From an uncultured virus (IMG/VR IMGVR_UViG_3300020051_001048) (taxonomy: Duplodnaviria > Heunggongvirae > Uroviricota > Caudoviricetes), in the IMG/VR virus record IMGVR_UViG_3300020051_001048: a DNA stretch of 64,000 nucleotides. One strand, given 5' to 3'. The translations under genes and the position numbers were made by a program. How positions within the stretch are numbered: position 1 is the stretch's first letter; each line of letters starts with the position of its first letter. Shown here one piece after another: positions 2,880-62,943 of the stretch. The notes under the pieces are model-generated. The model did not search any database. It was not told the origin of the DNA and was given only the letters and a program-made list of their open reading frames with translations.

Positions 2880-3401
2880 ATGAGCTGGCAAGGTCAAATG
2901 TCTACGATTGTTAGATACCTTATTAACGACACCGATTCAGAAAATTACAGCTTTAGTGATAATAGGCTTGAAACAAGTATACTAGTAGCTGCGCAATTGG
3001 TTATATCAGAAGTTGACTTTGCTAATGCTTATAGCATTAATGTGGAGTCCTGTTTATTATCACCCGACCCAACGGATGCAGCAACAAAAGACAATGACTT
3101 TATAACTTTGGTATCTTTAAAGTCTGCGTGTATAATCTTAGGTGGAGAAGTTAAAAAAGAAGCCGCAAATGCAGTTTCGATTAAAGACGGGGTTTCTGCT
3201 ATTGATACACGGGGGATTGCCCAAACATTATTAGTCTTACACAAAGACATGTGTTCTAAATACGAAGAGGCAGTATTTAACTACGAATCTGGAGAGTCTT
3301 CAAGTAACGGACAGGCGATACTAAGTCCGTATTCTCCGGGTTCAGATTTTATAACGAGAAACAATACCGATCATAGATCTGGTGGATATTTTAATTACTA
3401 G
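2880..3401 (+). CDS. Putative head-tail adaptor
   Basis: 173 aa; IVRYLIND...FSDNRL N-terminus typical of adaptor proteins; lies before the neck/tail genes. Confidence 0.55.
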   Translation: MSWQGQMSTIVRYLINDTDSENYSFSDNRLETSILVAAQLVISEVDFANAYSINVESCLLSPDPTDAATKDNDFITLVSLKSACIILGGEVKKEAANAVSIKDGVSAIDTRGIAQTLLVLHKDMCSKYEEAVFNYESGESSSNGQAILSPYSPGSDFITRNNTDHRSGGYFNY

Positions 3402-3410
3402 GAGAGAAAA

Positions 3411-4352
3411 ATGCCTACAATAAGAAGTTCTGGAGATATTATAGCGAGTATTTCTTCGGAGTTAGCAGATAATAATGCAGGACTTATTTCTGCTTACGAT
3501 GTTCGTCATAATATGGAAGATACAGTAGCTTCTATATCTAGAATTGTAGCGAGTGGTGACACACAAACTGAGTACCCATTCTATAACAATGTAACGATTA
3601 GACATATTCCGGGAGATACGAACGGTATTCTTTATGTAGAATCCGGCGTGATGTTCCCAAATAGCGACGAGAATCCAACATTACTTCAAAGAGATCCCTA
3701 TCCCGGAAATAACTCTATAGATCATGGTCAACTAGATGCAAGCAGTTTGTTGGACGATGACCATCCTCAATACATAAACCTAAATGGTGTAAGAGCCATG
3801 AACGCCAATTTTGGCGTTGGTAATGAAAATTGGATTAATAGTTCAGGTTTAGAGAATGGATCGTCCGAAGACAGAGGTATTCAATTTGTTCATCAGGGCG
3901 ATCATGATGATATGTATATTGGCACGTCTGGAAAGCTTGAATTTAATCTAGATAATTCTAAAATAGACAGTTTTCATGGCGTTGCAAAAGCTTGGGTTTC
4001 TTTCTCTGGAGGCGCACCTCCAAGTGTTGATGCCTATTATAATGTGTCAGGTATTCAGAGAATGAGTCAAGGAACTTATAAGATTACATTTAATAGTGGT
4101 ATCTTAGATAATAATAATTATGTCGCTATCGCCAACAGTAATGGCTTAGGCGACAATATCAATGAGGCTTCTATGCAGCCTAATACCGTTGGTCTTTTGC
4201 GACGAGAAGGTGACGACGGAACGTCTTTGAGAAGTATTTACTTCAGGGTAGAGCAAGACGATGGCGATTTGGTTGATGCCTCTCAGAACGATCTTGTTGT
4301 TTTTGGTTATGATCTTGGATCTTCTTCTGGAACACCCCCGACTGTAGCTTAG
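3411..4352 (+). CDS. Virion fibre/appendage protein
   Basis: GGAG RBS; HGQL..LLDDDHPQY and VAKAWVSF..YNVSGI..GTYKITF motifs seen in phage fibre proteins. Confidence 0.65.
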   Translation: MPTIRSSGDIIASISSELADNNAGLISAYDVRHNMEDTVASISRIVASGDTQTEYPFYNNVTIRHIPGDTNGILYVESGVMFPNSDENPTLLQRDPYPGNNSIDHGQLDASSLLDDDHPQYINLNGVRAMNANFGVGNENWINSSGLENGSSEDRGIQFVHQGDHDDMYIGTSGKLEFNLDNSKIDSFHGVAKAWVSFSGGAPPSVDAYYNVSGIQRMSQGTYKITFNSGILDNNNYVAIANSNGLGDNINEASMQPNTVGLLRREGDDGTSLRSIYFRVEQDDGDLVDASQNDLVVFGYDLGSSSGTPPTVA

Positions 4353-48666: not shown

Positions 48667-49401
48667 ATGGCAGCTTCAATTACATTTCACGCTAACATTC
48701 CGGCGCAAGCTAGTAGCGACGACCCAACTCTCATAGAGCATACCAGTAATTCTGGTATTGGCTTCTTTGGCGACTTGTTTGGTCTCTCGGTTCCGGTCGG
48801 AGAGTGGCAAAATACTACATATGTAACAAATTCTAACGGTACATCGTCTGGTGTTAAGGTAAATAATACTAAATTTATCACTTCTACCGGAGTTTCTAGC
48901 AATGGCGCTGGCGCAATTGAGCTAGATGCTATGCCAAATTATTACGCTCCATTGAATGTTAGATTTACGAACGACTCGGCTGTAAAGGTTCAGAACTGCA
49001 AGTTGCGGATTTTCGATAGAGTCAATCCAGCTAACCCAGCTACCGGGGTTTCTACAAAGGTTTTCGAGTGTCGTCATCCACATCCGGTTTCTGCTGATAA
49101 CGCTGGAACAGGTACTCTTTCACTTAAAGGCGATTCAGCTTCCACTTGGAAGACGTTTTTAGCTACAGATGATGACAACGAGCTAGATTTAACGTCATCT
49201 CCCGGAGAAAGTGGGCTAAACACAAGTCCGGAAAGCACACTTCCGTCTCAGGCTAGTGACGGTTACTATAACTATGTTACTACTGATGGAACGCTACACA
49301 GTAGCGCACAACACGACTGGTACATCGCTCTTTCTGCTTCCCCAGATACCATTGGGAGCAAGACGGAATACGGACTGTACGTCACTTTAGAATATTTATA
49401 A
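48667..49401 (+). CDS. Probable abundant virion protein
   Basis: 244 aa, Ser/Thr/Gly-rich; own promoter, strong RBS and a terminator. Confidence 0.7.
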   Translation: MAASITFHANIPAQASSDDPTLIEHTSNSGIGFFGDLFGLSVPVGEWQNTTYVTNSNGTSSGVKVNNTKFITSTGVSSNGAGAIELDAMPNYYAPLNVRFTNDSAVKVQNCKLRIFDRVNPANPATGVSTKVFECRHPHPVSADNAGTGTLSLKGDSASTWKTFLATDDDNELDLTSSPGESGLNTSPESTLPSQASDGYYNYVTTDGTLHSSAQHDWYIALSASPDTIGSKTEYGLYVTLEYL

Positions 49402-49404
49402 AAT

Positions 49405-49430
49405 AACCCCGCTTTCACACGGGGTTTTAT
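49405..49430. terminator. Bidirectional intrinsic terminator
   Basis: AACCCCG-N8-CGGGGTT stem; T-rich tails on both strands (+ TTTTAT, - TTATTTTAT). Confidence 0.8.
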
Positions 49431-49684
49431 CTGGTTTGTACATCCTTTTATTTGATTAAGGCCAGAATCTTATCATCTCATAATAAAAGGTATGAGGGGG
49501 TAATACCCCCTCTGCTTTTTGGAGTCGCTAATAACTACTCAAGAAAGCTAACTTAGTTTTAGGTTATTAGATGGCTTGTGTTCACTACTATAAATTAAGG
49601 CCATGATTCTTATTTAATAATAGTAGTGCTATTTGATCTTTCTGTCTTATGGTAAGATAGCAACACTTACTTTGTTTAAGACAG
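49430..49684 (-). ncRNA. Array of four structurally homologous pseudoknot units (unrecognised structured RNA)
   Basis: Each unit has an 8-9-bp stem, bulge, AAG-loop(8-9)-CUU and a CAA linker, followed by a 5-6-nt strand complementary to the loop; pairings are conserved while sequences differ. Confidence 0.75.
49494..49512. other. GC-rich hairpin inside the array (terminator-like or processing element)
   Basis: GAGGGGGT-AAT-ACCCCCTC, 8-bp perfect stem. Confidence 0.7.
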
Positions 49685-49687
49685 TGG

Positions 49688-50023
49688 TCATTCATTTTGA
49701 CCAGTTTTGGCGTTCCACTTTACCCACCCGTGATCAGGCAACCAGTTTCCGTCTGGGTCTTTACGTTTCGGGAATAGTGTTCCACCTTTCTTATTTACAC
49801 CAAACGATAGTCTTGCGCCACAGTCTGCACAGCGTAGTTCATAATATTCATTATCATCTACAGTTCTAACGACAAATCTTACATTGTCGCTACCGCATTT
49901 ACCGCAAGATGACTCTTCAAAAACCTCTTGGAACTTTGCGATTTCTGCAAAGATGCTTTTTTGGTCATCCCCTGACAACTCAACGCTAAGACGACCGTTA
50001 CGTGTTTGATAATTTACTTTCAT
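49688..50023 (-). CDS. Zn-ribbon protein
   Basis: CGKC and CADC pairs; likely start ATG 50023 (ATGA overlap, GGAG RBS). Confidence 0.75.
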   Translation of the reverse strand: MKVNYQTRNGRLSVELSGDDQKSIFAEIAKFQEVFEESSCGKCGSDNVRFVVRTVDDNEYYELRCADCGARLSFGVNKKGGTLFPKRKDPDGNWLPDHGWVKWNAKTGQNE

Positions 50024-50790
50024 GCATTTCTCCAATCTTCTTGATAACCAGTAATTGAACTAGGAATTAAATCTTTATTTTGCTGATACTCATTGAGTTT
50101 CTCAATCGCATCACTCGCTTGCTTCTTATCAATCTTCCTTGACACAGAAAGATTAAATACATCTTTAAACAGTTTTGCTGGACTGATATCCAACTGCTTA
50201 CTTTTACCATCAATGAACCTTTCTTGGTTCTCTGTCATTCTACCTGTTGATTGATATTCTCCTTGTGTACTTTGTATCGCATTAGTTTGACTGATACTCT
50301 TAACGATCTCAGCGGTATTCTTTTTAGTGACCTCTTCTGCGGCAACCACACGCAATCTAAGAGCTTTTCTTAGCGCACGACCTTCTGCTCTAGTCGCTGC
50401 CGTAGCGGTGTTAAACACACAAAATGTGTCGTCTGTATTGCCCTCCCAGCAGTCTGCCACATCACTGAACGATTGCCCGTTCTCAAACACGATTTCCCAG
50501 ATAACAGTTGCTCTACCAATACCATTATCATCTTGCGGCGGGAAGACTTTTGTAGGTCTACTGATTACGATATCACCGAATAGCAATTCTGCTACTCGCC
50601 GTAAACCGTGGCATAACGGTCGCCCATCATACATTTCATTATCTTCAAATAGACTTAGAACATAATCATTCCATCCGGGATCTGTGGTTTTTGGTCTACC
50701 GTCATCTATGATATCTACAACGCCGGTTCTGGTATTGGAAGGGGTTTGTAATTCAACGTCTTCAAATAAATCATCTGTTTTACTACTCAT
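50020..50790 (-). CDS. Putative Rad52/Sak-like ssDNA annealing protein
   Basis: GLRRVAE..RATVIWEI..FSDVAD..ATAATRAEGRALRKAL motif plus a C-terminal MTENQ..FI small helical domain. Confidence 0.6.
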   Translation of the reverse strand: MSSKTDDLFEDVELQTPSNTRTGVVDIIDDGRPKTTDPGWNDYVLSLFEDNEMYDGRPLCHGLRRVAELLFGDIVISRPTKVFPPQDDNGIGRATVIWEIVFENGQSFSDVADCWEGNTDDTFCVFNTATAATRAEGRALRKALRLRVVAAEEVTKKNTAEIVKSISQTNAIQSTQGEYQSTGRMTENQERFIDGKSKQLDISPAKLFKDVFNLSVSRKIDKKQASDAIEKLNEYQQNKDLIPSSITGYQEDWRNA

Positions 50791-51554
50791 AATTCGATCT
50801 CTATAAACCTTTCAGTTTTAGGTGGAAACTTCTTTTTAATATTATTAACTGCTTCTATTACTTTATTAGATAAGTCTTCCTTTTTATTTAGTGATTCTTG
50901 ACCAAGTGACTTCACTCTAATTATAGCGTAACCACGACTCAAAAGCAAGCCAGATTTGTGTAAATCTGCTTTTATTTGTTTCTGTAGTTTTTCTTCGCCC
51001 CAAATAGGGAGAAAGTGCGAAGGCCCATCTACTTCTATTATAGTTTTTATCTCTGGCAGATAGATGTCAATTTCTAGTTTTTCTGTAGGAATAAGACGTT
51101 TATTATGATGCTCAATTCTGTATCCAGATTCTTCTATTTTATTGCCTATAAACATTTCTAGCTTTGAACCCTCTTGACCGGCTTTTCTGATCGCTTCGGT
51201 AGCGAGTTTAGACATTCTGTCTTTTTGTGCGCTACTCATATTTTGCCATCTTTCTTTTGCTTGAAGAGACCTCTCTTCTTTCTCTTTTTCGGATAGAGAA
51301 CTCCAGTGCGATTCCAAGGAAGAACTAATCTTAACTCTTTCTTCTAAAGATCGCTCTTTACCGGCTGTCGGGTGTTCACATCTACCATTTTCAAGCGCTA
51401 GTTTTTGAGCTTCGCTTTTAGTTTTAAGTGATATACCATGCTTTTTTAAGATTCTTCTAATCTTATTAGGGTACGTATTTAATTCTTCGGCAATTTGATA
51501 AGTACTCTTATTCATATCGCTGTAGAGTGATATGACCTTTTTTTCTAAGTCCAT
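50787..51554 (-). CDS. HTH + DUF559/Vsr-like endonuclease (homing-endonuclease-like)
   Basis: N-terminal HTH (STYQIAEELNTYPNKIRRIL), NUMOD3-like repeats, C-terminal EIDIYLP..IIEVDGPSH. Confidence 0.8.
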   Translation of the reverse strand: MDLEKKVISLYSDMNKSTYQIAEELNTYPNKIRRILKKHGISLKTKSEAQKLALENGRCEHPTAGKERSLEERVKISSSLESHWSSLSEKEKEERSLQAKERWQNMSSAQKDRMSKLATEAIRKAGQEGSKLEMFIGNKIEESGYRIEHHNKRLIPTEKLEIDIYLPEIKTIIEVDGPSHFLPIWGEEKLQKQIKADLHKSGLLLSRGYAIIRVKSLGQESLNKKEDLSNKVIEAVNNIKKKFPPKTERFIEIEL

Positions 51555-52976: not shown

Positions 52977-53785
52977 GATTGTTCTGTCTTAATTCTAATT
53001 TTTTCTGATATTTCTTTTGCAATTGGGCAATTTCCAGTAATATTTAGTTTTCTGTAGCATGGTTGATCGTAAACCAGTCTTGGGTAATGGCCTTGATCTG
53101 GACCTCTTATGCCTAACTCTGCTTTTATCCCAACCATATGTATTTTCATTTGTTCTAAAGCCATAAGGCATAATGGCTCTGCCATTCTAAAATTAAAACC
53201 AACGTATTCATGGTTATATTTTCCAACCTGTCCTTGGTCGCATATTGATCTAATTTTATTGCCATCTAATTTAGATTTTTTGGGTATGCATATCATACCC
53301 CCTTCAAATGTTGAGATGTTTTTTGTTTTGTAGAACGAGAATGTTCCTACATCTCCATTCATTCCAGCGTAATTTCCTTCTCTATCAGTCGCGCCAAATG
53401 CCTGAGATGTATCTTCTATAACTATTAAGTTATATTTTTCTGCAATTCTGTTTATTTCTTTCATATTACAAACTCGACCGTAAAGATGAACGGGCATGAT
53501 TGCTTTAGTATTTTTTGTAATAGCTGCTTCTATTTTAGAGGCGTCTATCAGATAAGTAGATGGGTCAATATCTACAAACACAGGTTTTGCTTTACTGATA
53601 AGTATAGAATTAGACGAGGCAATAAACGTAAAGGGTGTCGTTATAACTTCGTCTGTGTTTTTAAGATCCATTGACCAAAGCGGAGCAATTAGAGCAGACG
53701 TTCCATTGTTGACAGCTATACAATCCTTTAGATCAAACCTCTCCTTGACGTATTCTTCAAAAATATTTCTAACTATTTGTGGCAT
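52973..53785 (-). CDS. DegT/DnrJ/EryC1/StrS sugar aminotransferase (WlbC/WbpE-like), shortened
   Basis: VNNGTSAL, EVITTPFTFIAS, PVHLYG, IEDTSQAFG, SFYKTKN (PLP Lys), GFNFRM; start at ATG 53785 after AAGGTG. Confidence 0.88.
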   Translation of the reverse strand: MPQIVRNIFEEYVKERFDLKDCIAVNNGTSALIAPLWSMDLKNTDEVITTPFTFIASSNSILISKAKPVFVDIDPSTYLIDASKIEAAITKNTKAIMPVHLYGRVCNMKEINRIAEKYNLIVIEDTSQAFGATDREGNYAGMNGDVGTFSFYKTKNISTFEGGMICIPKKSKLDGNKIRSICDQGQVGKYNHEYVGFNFRMAEPLCLMALEQMKIHMVGIKAELGIRGPDQGHYPRLVYDQPCYRKLNITGNCPIAKEISEKIRIKTEQS

Positions 53786-61811: not shown

Positions 61812-62943
61812 TTATCGCTCCCTTCATTAGTTCTGCAACGTTTTTATAGGAGAATTGTTCTGCTCTCTTCAGTCCAGCAGCCTGATTCCTAGACTTATAG
61901 GAAATACTATCCTTTTTCCAAGAGTTATACAGTCTTCTCATTTGTTCTTTAATATCTTTCTCTGACGGCTGAAACCAATACTCCCTTCCGGTAAAGAGGT
62001 CTTGAAATGCTGCATCATCACATCTACAGATAGTTGAAACTCCATTAGCCAAGAATCCAGTTCTCCAATCATTCCTATCAATAAAATCTCTAGGTCCACC
62101 AAAATTAGAGCAGATTGGAGTGTTGCCAAAGCACATTGCTTCAAATGATGGGATAGACCAAGCTTCTCCGTGAGACGGACATATGAAACAATCGCAATAC
62201 TGATGTAGCGCGTATAACTCTTCTTCTTTAATTTTAGAAGGCACTATAACTGGTCTTTTGTAGTCTGTCGAATTTCTATATAGACGCACATCTTTTTGGA
62301 CTTTCGCAGATAGATTATTAACTAGCTCTTCCATCATTTTTGGATCGTGACCAAATTTACTAACTTTAAGTATTAGAGCTACATCTTCTGAAGATTCAAA
62401 TTCTGAATAAAAACAAGCAAGAATAGACTCAAGATTTTTTCTCTTATTTACATCTCCAATATAGTAAAATTTGAATTTACCCTCTACGTTGGGTACTTTT
62501 ATGTCGCCATATCTCCGTTTATATTTTTCTAATTCAAAAGTATGTGGAATCACTTTAACCGGGATGCCGATTTCATCTTCAATTAAAGAATTTTTAAGTT
62601 GTTCATTTGGAACCCATACCTCATCCATCATTTTAAGGTTTTCTAACCAAGCGAGACCTTTAATACTGGTTGATTCGGAAGCAAAAAAAGCAATATTCTT
62701 TTTAAGCTTGTTATATTTAACAAGATAGTGCGGTAGAACATGTTGAATACAAATATCACAATCAGAAGAATCTTTCTTCTCTAGCGCTAGAAGTCTGCTA
62801 TCAACATCTTCTTTGTCACTAGTCAAAGTAACATTTCTGCAAACAACATCAACACCATTTTTGTCTAAGGCTAGTATATAGTCGGTTGCAGCCTGAGACC
62901 AGCCACCAAATTCCTTGTAATGTCCTATGTATAATATTTTCAT
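61804..62943 (-). CDS. GT4-family glycosyltransferase
   Basis: DEVWVPN, RKNL, DCFICPSHGEAWSIPSFEAMCFG. Confidence 0.88.
   Translation of the reverse strand: MKILYIGHYKEFGGWSQAATDYILALDKNGVDVVCRNVTLTSDKEDVDSRLLALEKKDSSDCDICIQHVLPHYLVKYNKLKKNIAFFASESTSIKGLAWLENLKMMDEVWVPNEQLKNSLIEDEIGIPVKVIPHTFELEKYKRRYGDIKVPNVEGKFKFYYIGDVNKRKNLESILACFYSEFESSEDVALILKVSKFGHDPKMMEELVNNLSAKVQKDVRLYRNSTDYKRPVIVPSKIKEEELYALHQYCDCFICPSHGEAWSIPSFEAMCFGNTPICSNFGGPRDFIDRNDWRTGFLANGVSTICRCDDAAFQDLFTGREYWFQPSEKDIKEQMRRLYNSWKKDSISYKSRNQAAGLKRAEQFSYKNVAELMKGAINE

Follow-up and report, generated by a model that had tools for sequence, protein, structure and literature searches.

A tandem array of double-pseudoknot RNA modules behind a phage Zn-ribbon gene belongs to an uncatalogued RNA family

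The stretch analysed here, hereafter the window, comprises 64,000 nucleotides (nt) from an uncultured virus (IMG/VR record IMGVR_UViG_3300020051_001048; Duplodnaviria; Heunggongvirae; Uroviricota; Caudoviricetes). Between the stop codon of a gene for a putative Zn-ribbon protein and a terminator hairpin, its minus strand carries an array of four units of 56-60 nt (49430-49684), which in transcript order are designated D, C, B and A. These units represent an uncatalogued RNA family, absent from Rfam and from the literature searched, and 50 distinct further units were collected from marine phage and metagenome contigs. Sequence and covariation together show each module to be an autonomous, closed double pseudoknot. 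Judged from context and position, the modules may be cis-acting, exonuclease-resistant boundary caps working like viral exonuclease-resistant RNAs (xrRNAs), a reading to which we assign a probability of roughly 35%.

Each unit is built from an outer stem (P1), an inner stem of the form UAAG/CUU[AG], and a pseudoknot between the inner loop and a strand lying 3' of a CAA trinucleotide. All coordinates of the units refer to the minus strand. Unit D (49684-49627) reads CUGUCUUA-AACAAAG-UAAG-UGUUGCUAU-CUUA-CCA-UAAGACAG-AAAGAU-CAA-AUAGCA; its P1 joins 49684-49677 to 49649-49642, its inner stem joins 49669-49666 to 49656-49653 around the loop 49665-49657, and the linker (49641-49636) and CAA (49635-49633) lead into a pseudoknot strand (49632-49627) that pairs with 49662-49657. 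Unit C (49626-49571) reads CUACUAU-UAUUAAA-UAAG-AAUCAUGGC-CUUA-AUUU-AUAGUAG-UGAACA-CAA-GCCAU, with P1 at 49626-49620 and 49591-49585, the inner stem at 49612-49609 and 49599-49596, the linker at 49584-49579, CAA at 49578-49576, and a pseudoknot strand (49575-49571) facing 49604-49600; its inner stem can be extended to AAAUAAG/CUUA(A)UUU with a bulged A. Unit B (49570-49514) reads CUAAUAAC-CUAAAAC-UAAG-UUAGCUUU-CUUG-AGUA-GUUAUUAG-CGACUC-CAA-AAAGC and pairs 49570-49563 with 49535-49528 in P1 and 49555-49552 with 49543-49540 in the inner stem (UAAG/CUUG, one G-U); the linker (49527-49522) and CAA (49521-49519) precede a pseudoknot strand (49518-49514) complementary to 49548-49544. Unit A (49489-49430) reads CUUUUAUU-AUGAGAUGA-UAAG-AUUCUGGC-CUUA-AUCA-AAUAAAAG-GAUGUA-CAA-ACCAGA. 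Its P1 (49489-49482 with 49452-49445) admits a ninth pair, C49490-G49444, and is followed by the inner stem (49472-49469 with 49460-49457), the linker (49444-49439), CAA (49438-49436), and the pseudoknot strand (49435-49430), which forms 5 base pairs (bp) with 49466-49462.

The array had been proposed in a preliminary description, a model's reading of the nucleotide letters, and its account of the architecture proved accurate in nearly every detail. On re-reading the sequence and re-deriving every segment of units D, C, B and A by script, all four were recovered letter for letter on the minus strand, with UAAG, CUU[AG] and CAA in each of them. Pairing of the loop with the tail, likewise claimed for all four, is present throughout at 5-6 bp; in unit A it amounts to the 5 bp of UCUGG/CCAGA, the sixth position being an A-C mismatch. 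The basal stems had been given as 8-9 bp, which stands except in unit C, whose stem is better read as the 7 bp of CUACUAU/AUAGUAG because the outer two "pairs" reuse the last two letters of the unit D pseudoknot strand and are broken in a strain variant. The spacing is also as described: the array begins 3 nt (CCA) past the UGA stop codon of the Zn-ribbon gene (49690-49688), D, C and B adjoin directly (0 nt apart), a GC hairpin (49494-49512) that is terminator-like on both strands separates B from A, and a terminator hairpin (49405-49426, minus strand) with a U-run follows unit A and closes the minus-strand transcription unit, 4 nt past the stop of the convergent gene. Pairwise identity among the four units is 53-70%, compared with a shuffled mean of about 55%.

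The postulated pseudoknot held when tested for covariation in two alignments of the wider family. In a MAFFT alignment of 34 units that contains no window sequence, 92.9% of cells pair, as opposed to 75.7% after shuffling; compensatory changes occur at 14 of 17 pairs, none of 500 shuffles matches any of the measures, and sliding one partner by 1-3 columns lowers pairing to 31-54%. When 50 units were fitted to a search model, 95.6% of cells paired and 16 of the 17 pairs were compensatory. The pseudoknot itself covaries at all five of its pairs across these 50 units (95.4% paired), and the alignment could not lean towards it because the model did not encode it. Every one of the 50 units has a paired inner stem, in the variants UGAG/CUCA, UGGG/CCCA, UCAG/CUGA, CAAG/CUUG, UAAG/CUUA and UGAG/CUUA. 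G-U pairs are frequent in the family and thereby fix the strand.

The same units define a compact consensus. P1 comprises 7-9 bp, begins with CU at its 5' end and finishes with AG at its 3' end; the terminal C-G pair is found in 49 of 50 units and the next pair, U-A, in 37, while the inner P1 pairs vary freely. The linker from P1 to CAA is always 6 nt long, without gaps in its six alignment columns and without constraint on its sequence. CAA is nearly invariant, its C being present in all 50 units, and the pseudoknot strand beyond it pairs with the 3' half of the inner loop. Units of type 1 follow the layout CU-P1, AAUAAAGU, UGAG, a loop starting with UU, CUCA, NNCGA, the 3' strand of P1, 6 nt, CAA, and the pseudoknot strand. 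The letters of their internal loop (5' side, UAAAG(Y); 3' side, NNCGA) are conserved to a degree typical of riboswitches.

Chance was gauged with a descriptor that called for AAG-N7-10-CTT and CAA together with 7 bp or more in P1 and 5 bp or more between loop and tail. Applied to both strands of the 64-kb window, it matched the four units only, and 20 block-shuffled windows yielded two matches in total (about 0.1 per window). Because the descriptor was derived from the units themselves, this control demonstrates clustering and not independent discovery; a relaxed version lacking the UAAG/CUU letters gave many chance matches and was uninformative. Independent support for the units is provided by the family covariation and by the detection of D, A and C with a model free of window sequence, described below. 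Both strands of the array fold better than shuffles (z of -3.7 and -4.1), so folding energy does not tell the strand. The minus-strand transcript favoured in the preliminary description is instead borne out by the G-U pairs found throughout the family and by the co-orientation of units with genes, tRNAs, and transfer-messenger RNA (tmRNA).

Comparison with Rfam 15 agrees with the earlier statement that the array belongs to no named family. At gathering level the window gave 0 matches, and the interval 49300-49800, scanned at E up to 10, gave 11 weak and unrelated ones, the best of which (Clostridiales-2, 22 bits against a cut-off of 58.6) lies on the GC hairpin. Among nine related loci, only tRNA and tmRNA were matched. 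The literature search, which was poor in subscription journals, found no description of such a motif.

Further members were gathered by pattern and model searches. In IMG/VR, a first type-1 pattern retrieved 15 loci, five of them with true units, and a looser pattern at least 105 loci, of which at least 13 hold true units; in metagenome contigs, the type-1 pattern gave 53 loci, 14 with true units. Among 185,579 representative prokaryote genomes, 11 loci fit the pattern and 0 were true units, so no cellular counterpart was found there. A pattern based on unit A (16 fixed bases) returned 24 loci in IMG/VR, about the number expected by chance, with units on the L004 contig only. A model termed R1 located units away from the Zn-ribbon junction in a complete phage genome of 173.8 kb (G005). 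Its weak matches in G006 and G007 (E 0.5-0.8) were discarded, since their sequence shows no unit, and three loci (L074, L093, L114) with the pattern and a possible pseudoknot, lacking P1, were left out as doubtful. A second model, R2, was built from 34 units, none of them from the window. R2 found nine units in G005 and, overall, 51 units over 21 loci, 50 of them distinct. Four further relatives of the phage, three complete and one 73% complete, gave 0 units with R2; each of them carries tRNAs. At three loci (L099, 504-749; L101, 566-811; L116, 1-244), 4-5 near-identical units form an array with a period of 62 nt.

The window units share the essentials of this family. All four have the CU...AG ends of P1, the 6-nt linker, CAA, and a pseudoknot abutting the inner stem, and they share the UAAG/CUUA inner stem with some type-1 units, namely L156 and the fifth one in L099. 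When R2 was run on 128 kb of window sequence, unit D ranked first (20.4 bits, E 0.005), unit A third (19.1 bits, E 0.011), and unit C fourth (13.3 bits, E 0.3); unit B was not among the R2 matches at E up to 10 and was found by R1. A further R2 match, at 62072-62135 (plus strand, E 0.01), lies antisense in a glycosyltransferase gene, has an imperfect outer stem, and lacks the inner stem and pseudoknot. This false positive at E 0.01 shows R2 to be weak for window-type units. The window units have neither the UAAAG nor the CGA loop letters, their loops being A/U-rich and of other lengths, and in C, B, A and the second unit of L004 the inner stem gains 2-3 covarying pairs beyond a bulged A (AAA/UUU, AC/GU, UGA/UCA, GA/UC). 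Because the loop letters are absent, the window units are assigned to the family as its second type.

At the Zn-ribbon junction, the content of the intergenic gap is variable. The Zn-ribbon protein has 37 relatives in IMG/VR with 58-90% identity, among which the convergent junction is syntenic and its contents differ; most have just one or two terminator hairpins there. R1 found units at this junction in one of the 37 relatives, L004, and a later pattern scan added L184, so that the homologues anticipated downstream of the Zn-ribbon gene in related phages do exist. In L004, a unit 3 nt past the stop is followed by a GC hairpin, a close homologue of unit A (3440-3500), and a terminator; this 3' untranslated region (3' UTR) thus combines one type-1 and one window-type unit. 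L184 has a single type-1 unit, 1 nt past the stop of the Zn-ribbon homologue, and then a terminator. Other elements occupy the same position elsewhere. In one relative (L003), whose Zn-ribbon protein is 90% identical, the gene is followed (~3350-3600) by a different repeat of about 95 nt in three copies, each ending in a hairpin and then AUAAAUC; the next gene there is co-directional rather than convergent, and the repeat has no Rfam match at gathering level. Four relatives (L001, L002, L010, L037) have a 9-bp hairpin in the first ~40 nt past the Zn-ribbon stop, with a varying stem and a loop that is constant (CACACC as read on this strand). The single non-Watson-Crick position of this hairpin forms a G-U pair only when the opposite strand is read, and the hairpin probably belongs to the transcript of the convergent gene.

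Across the family, the units recur in several contexts, and all of them are co-oriented with neighbouring genes, tRNAs and tmRNA. Five blocks start 6-9 nt past a -10-like hexamer, approximately at the transcription start (in L099, TTGACA-17-TATACT). At nine junctions, 1-8 nt separate a unit from a tRNA or tmRNA piece, with units found on both sides of such pieces. Units begin 1 nt past tRNA-Ile in three loci and 1 nt past a tmRNA acceptor piece. In G005, units flank tRNA-Ile on both sides, two more precede tRNA-Leu, and a tandem pair stands behind a TATAAT box. The same genome carries a permuted two-piece tmRNA gene (53226-53531, equivalent to 5226-5531 of L084; RF04321, 91 bits; ARAGORN tag AKPSFALAA) in which two units make up the intervening segment, the stretch that runs from the acceptor piece with its CCA end to the 5' end of the coding piece. 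Seven unit blocks start 1-10 nt past an upstream stop codon of an open reading frame (ORF) or overlap it, and an eighth (L234), read by eye, abuts a stop codon. Twelve units end 7-34 nt upstream of a ribosome binding site and ATG, and a U-run comes after many terminal units. Five contigs (L071, L086, L176, L182, L234) have one or two units, usually with a U-run behind them, placed between a promoter and one and the same gene; its product starts MDWFPL.NYTHYSL, which we take to resemble the start of a PHP domain.

Contigs assembled from metatranscriptomes provide a view of the array itself. In three runs, the Zn-ribbon ORF is joined to the array. Contig X15 (49444-49777, 0 differences) and the 290-nt contig X18 (49461-49750, 6 differences) cross D, C, B and the GC hairpin and enter A, and X17 (49575-49761) reaches C only; positions 49370-49436 are uncovered in all four runs, and depth is flat. 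The contigs that bridge the units are weak evidence for a read-through transcript and for the lack of efficient cutting at unit borders, weak because they hold no information on strand or ends and may derive from DNA. In the X18 strain, the five listed differences (49583, 49584, 49636, 49638, 49640) all fall in the 6-nt linkers of C and D, while contigs of neighbouring ORFs from this strain differ by 4-7%. Judged by this restriction to the linkers, the window units are under strong purifying selection. A similar distribution is seen in the L099, L101 and L116 repeats, whose stems and loops are frozen and whose differences lie mostly in the 6-nt linker and the 2-nt spacers; these positions were either spared by concerted evolution or actively diversified.

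Among the alternatives entertained in the preliminary description, nuclease-blocking elements would fit these contexts best. The association with tRNA and tmRNA genes and the extent of the family went beyond that description. In the proposed mechanism, the inner stem would stack coaxially on the pseudoknot helix, as in a classical H-type pseudoknot, and receive the CAA adenines in its minor groove; the path of 14-15 nt formed by linker, CAA and pseudoknot strand would close the fold beside the module's own 5' end. Modules would be placed where an RNA end is made or exposed: at a transcription start, past a stop codon ahead of a terminator, or flanking tRNA and tmRNA pieces excised by RNase P and 3'-processing enzymes. 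There they would shield the adjoining message and themselves persist as stable small RNAs. In the window, the transcript of the Zn-ribbon operon would have its 3' end armoured by three modules and by a fourth that lies between two terminators.

Among the closest known systems are the xrRNAs, which in flaviviral 3' UTRs occur in tandem. Like the units, they are small protein-free folds, each a stem-loop without a three-way junction and with a pseudoknot to a strand 3' of the stem, and they are positioned where an RNA end needs protection, as the contexts of the units suggest for the modules. The differences are equally clear: there is no sequence likeness, the units have a 7-9-bp P1 with CU/AG ends, internal loops of their own, and CAA, and in their bacterial host the nuclease to be resisted would be RNase J or a 3'-5' exonuclease instead of Xrn1. 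In plant-virus xrRNAs (Tombusviridae, Luteoviridae), a stem-loop with a required pseudoknot forms a ring of about 15 nt around the 5' end (PMC8374639), a size that may correspond to the 14-15 nt of linker, CAA and pseudoknot strand in the units. An xrRNA in a DNA phage was not found described in the literature searched.

Several observations weigh against a capping role. Where 4-5 near-identical units form an array behind a strong promoter (L099, L101, L116), the arrangement resembles a dosage device more than a cap, and a nuclease-proof fold immediately after the CCA end of the tmRNA acceptor piece would hinder exonucleolytic trimming. Type-1 units have riboswitch-like invariant loop letters that the window units lack, and it may be doubted that two such types do the same job. 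Three complete relatives and a 73%-complete one, all with tRNAs, carry 0 units, and the modules are therefore dispensable. Finally, neither strand nor transcript ends can be read from the RNA contigs, and some DNA may be present in RNA libraries.

Another possibility, which we regard as doubtful yet worth keeping in view, is that the units are trans-acting small RNAs. They would be freed from longer transcripts, through the tRNA-processing machinery where tRNAs adjoin, or transcribed on their own as short RNAs, and in multiple copies they would serve as a decoy or sponge that titrates a protein of the host or the phage. Such RNAs could come from the stand-alone layout of a sigma-70-like promoter, 1-5 units and a U-run (L099, L176, L182, L071/L086, and G005 at 35.9 kb). 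The existence of 4-5-unit near-identical arrays, the tight abutment to tRNAs, which would free discrete RNAs of about 60 nt, and the invariant type-1 loop letters, as expected of a binding site, all point the same way. Against this, many units lie inside operons, only 7 nt ahead of the next ribosome site and without a terminator; no partner protein co-occurs, and 36 relatives of the Zn-ribbon gene lack units at its 3' end. The window units have no invariant loop letters, and their 0-nt abutment leaves no known nuclease site between them.

Placement next to tRNAs also recalls self-cleavage. A new small ribozyme cutting at its own 5' edge would release upstream tRNAs, tmRNA pieces or messages at their 3' ends and chop arrays into monomers, an explanation we consider unlikely. 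In minimal ribozymes of the hepatitis delta virus (HDV) type, the linker, J4/2 and P2 resemble the linker, C-A-A and 3' pairing strand of the units, whose nearly fixed P1 end (C-G in 49/50, then U-A in 37/50) and fixed C of CAA (50/50) would suit a catalytic RNA; units also abut with 0-2 nt and thus require no spacer. A close parallel is provided by the theta ribozymes, of minimal HDV-like type, for which such a role next to gut-phage tRNAs has been shown. Their cleavage site lies within 5 nt of the 3' ends of gut-phage tRNAs, and they occur alone as well, in sense orientation in non-coding DNA (PMC10879173). The position of units 1 nt past tRNA-Ile (three loci) and past the tmRNA acceptor piece would be theta-like. 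Both RNAs are phage-restricted, are found directly 3' of tRNAs and alone in non-coding DNA in sense, and form a nested pseudoknot with P1 at the 5' edge and a conserved C and adenines before the 3' pairing strand. They differ in strand connectivity, and in the units neither a 2-bp P1.1 nor a G1-U wobble can be assigned; units are also located before tRNAs, at transcription starts, and in 3' UTRs, and they come from marine or estuarine rather than gut phages.

The fold itself speaks against this activity. The 3' strand of the units pairs with the hairpin loop and not, as in the HDV fold, with the segment between P1 and the hairpin. An HDV-like refolding was rejected, as the CUC/GAG hairpin that it needs is lost in the UGGG, UCAG and CAAG variants, and the inner stem pairs in 50/50 units. 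No Rfam ribozyme family matches; HDV-type models in particular gave nothing in 49300-49800 at E up to 10 or in the nine related loci. Five blocks stand at the predicted transcription start, with nothing left to cut off, and units also occur upstream of tRNAs. RNA-library contigs bridge the ORF-D, D-C, C-B and B-A borders, weak evidence given that the libraries may include DNA, and a CCA-adding enzyme was not found in the five related phage records searched. The more specific notion of a ~60-nt ribozyme with an HDV-like core topology and rewired strands, with which marine phages would punctuate polycistronic RNAs by freeing tRNA and tmRNA 3' ends, severing messages just past their stop codons and splitting arrays into monomers, is disfavoured by this evidence and improbable.

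The conserved letters of type 1 have also been weighed as a ligand-binding site, with the units serving as leaders of riboswitch type or, in arrays, as a sink for a small molecule, which we judge distinctly improbable. Both the internal-loop letters and CAA are conserved at riboswitch grade, one or two units stand between a promoter and the same PHP-domain-like gene in five contigs, and tandem aptamers are known for glutamine riboswitches. A further precedent lies in the tmRNA gene: a study of Melnitz-like marine phages places a glnA-like motif (glutamine riboswitch) inside their two-piece tmRNA gene (PMC9004378). That RNA, from myophages, is, like the units, a small structured module in a permuted phage tmRNA gene of marine origin, commonly present in tandem copies; it has another consensus, and most units described here lie outside tmRNA genes. 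The Rfam models RF01739 (glnA RNA) and RF01704 (Downstream-peptide) match neither the window nor the nine related loci. Moreover, alternative pairing or an expression platform is lacking, the window-type units have no conserved loop letters, and a gene switch would have no purpose in the 3'-UTR arrays (window, L004, L184), at tRNA flanks, or in the tmRNA spacer.

Head-to-tail pseudoknot repeats are the architecture of the type III antitoxins ToxI, CptI and TenpI, and the preliminary description had drawn this analogy, extending it to pseudo-ToxI: processed units would mimic the antitoxin and neutralise a ToxN-type toxin of host abortive infection. The repeat architecture and the near-identical arrays in some relatives are shared. 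The analogy nevertheless fails on unit length, repeat identity, the missing toxin and the genomic contexts, and such a role is very improbable. Type III antitoxin repeats are near-identical and about 34-45 nt long; the window units measure 56-60 nt and are 53-70% alike, about the shuffled level. Downstream lie a terminator and a convergent gene, and a search of the six neighbouring proteins with PADLOC and Pfam gave no toxin-family match, with no ToxN-, AbiQ-, CptN- or TenpN-like gene near the array. The site of toxin cleavage should be fixed, and the 6-nt linker is free to vary, leaving the units without a fixed cleavage motif. Transcript-start and tRNA-flank contexts go unexplained, and, as stated above, none of 11 pattern matches in representative prokaryote genomes is a true unit. 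A DNA-level element (a recombination, packaging or replication signal, or a mobile miniature element) with incidental RNA folds might be read into the hot spot at the Zn-ribbon junction (nothing, a hairpin, one, two or four units, or a different triple repeat) and the equal folding of both strands, but it is scarcely credible given that the G-U pairs become A-C mismatches on the other strand, orientation strictly follows transcription, the pseudoknot covaries, and terminal inverted repeats and target duplications are absent.

The gene whose 3' UTR holds the array (49688-50035, minus strand) was taken from the ORF list and encodes 115 amino acids (aa); its Zn-ribbon assignment reflects weak Pfam matches, all under curated cut-offs. 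On the other side, the gap is bounded by the convergent gene (48667-49401, plus strand; 244 aa), which has no family match and lies outside the RNA element. Two genes upstream of the array, a 255-aa gene (50787-51554, minus strand) matches homing/HNH endonuclease PHROGs (best E 1e-9) and, weakly, a methyl-directed restriction enzyme model; defence-system models run on the six neighbouring proteins gave only a weak restriction-enzyme-like match on this homing-endonuclease-like gene. ARAGORN found no tRNA in the window. A phage collection searched by blastn (array), megablast (12 kb around the array) and tblastn (a 372-aa protein) returned no match. Elsewhere in the window (11564-35156, plus strand), two giant ORFs (3770 and 4091 aa) stand head to tail ahead of two more, of 1761 and 1466 aa. 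Of these four, the 1466-aa ORF was scanned and matched neither PHROG nor Pfam families, and PHROG matches are likewise lacking for five other ORFs in this half.

If the fold is as covariation says, the family represents a new, strongly conserved, compact and modular RNA architecture at RNA boundaries, at tRNA flanks, and inside a tmRNA gene. Its fixed-length, sequence-free 6-nt linker and invariant CU/AG stem ends amount to sharp design rules for structural work. Should the modules turn out to be a ribozyme, a decoy or an aptamer, they would constitute a new class of that kind. Should they be caps, they would be a bacterial-virus counterpart of xrRNAs and a 60-nt insulator and stabiliser for synthetic biology, and phages would manage the ends left by tRNA-type processing through RNA structure alone.

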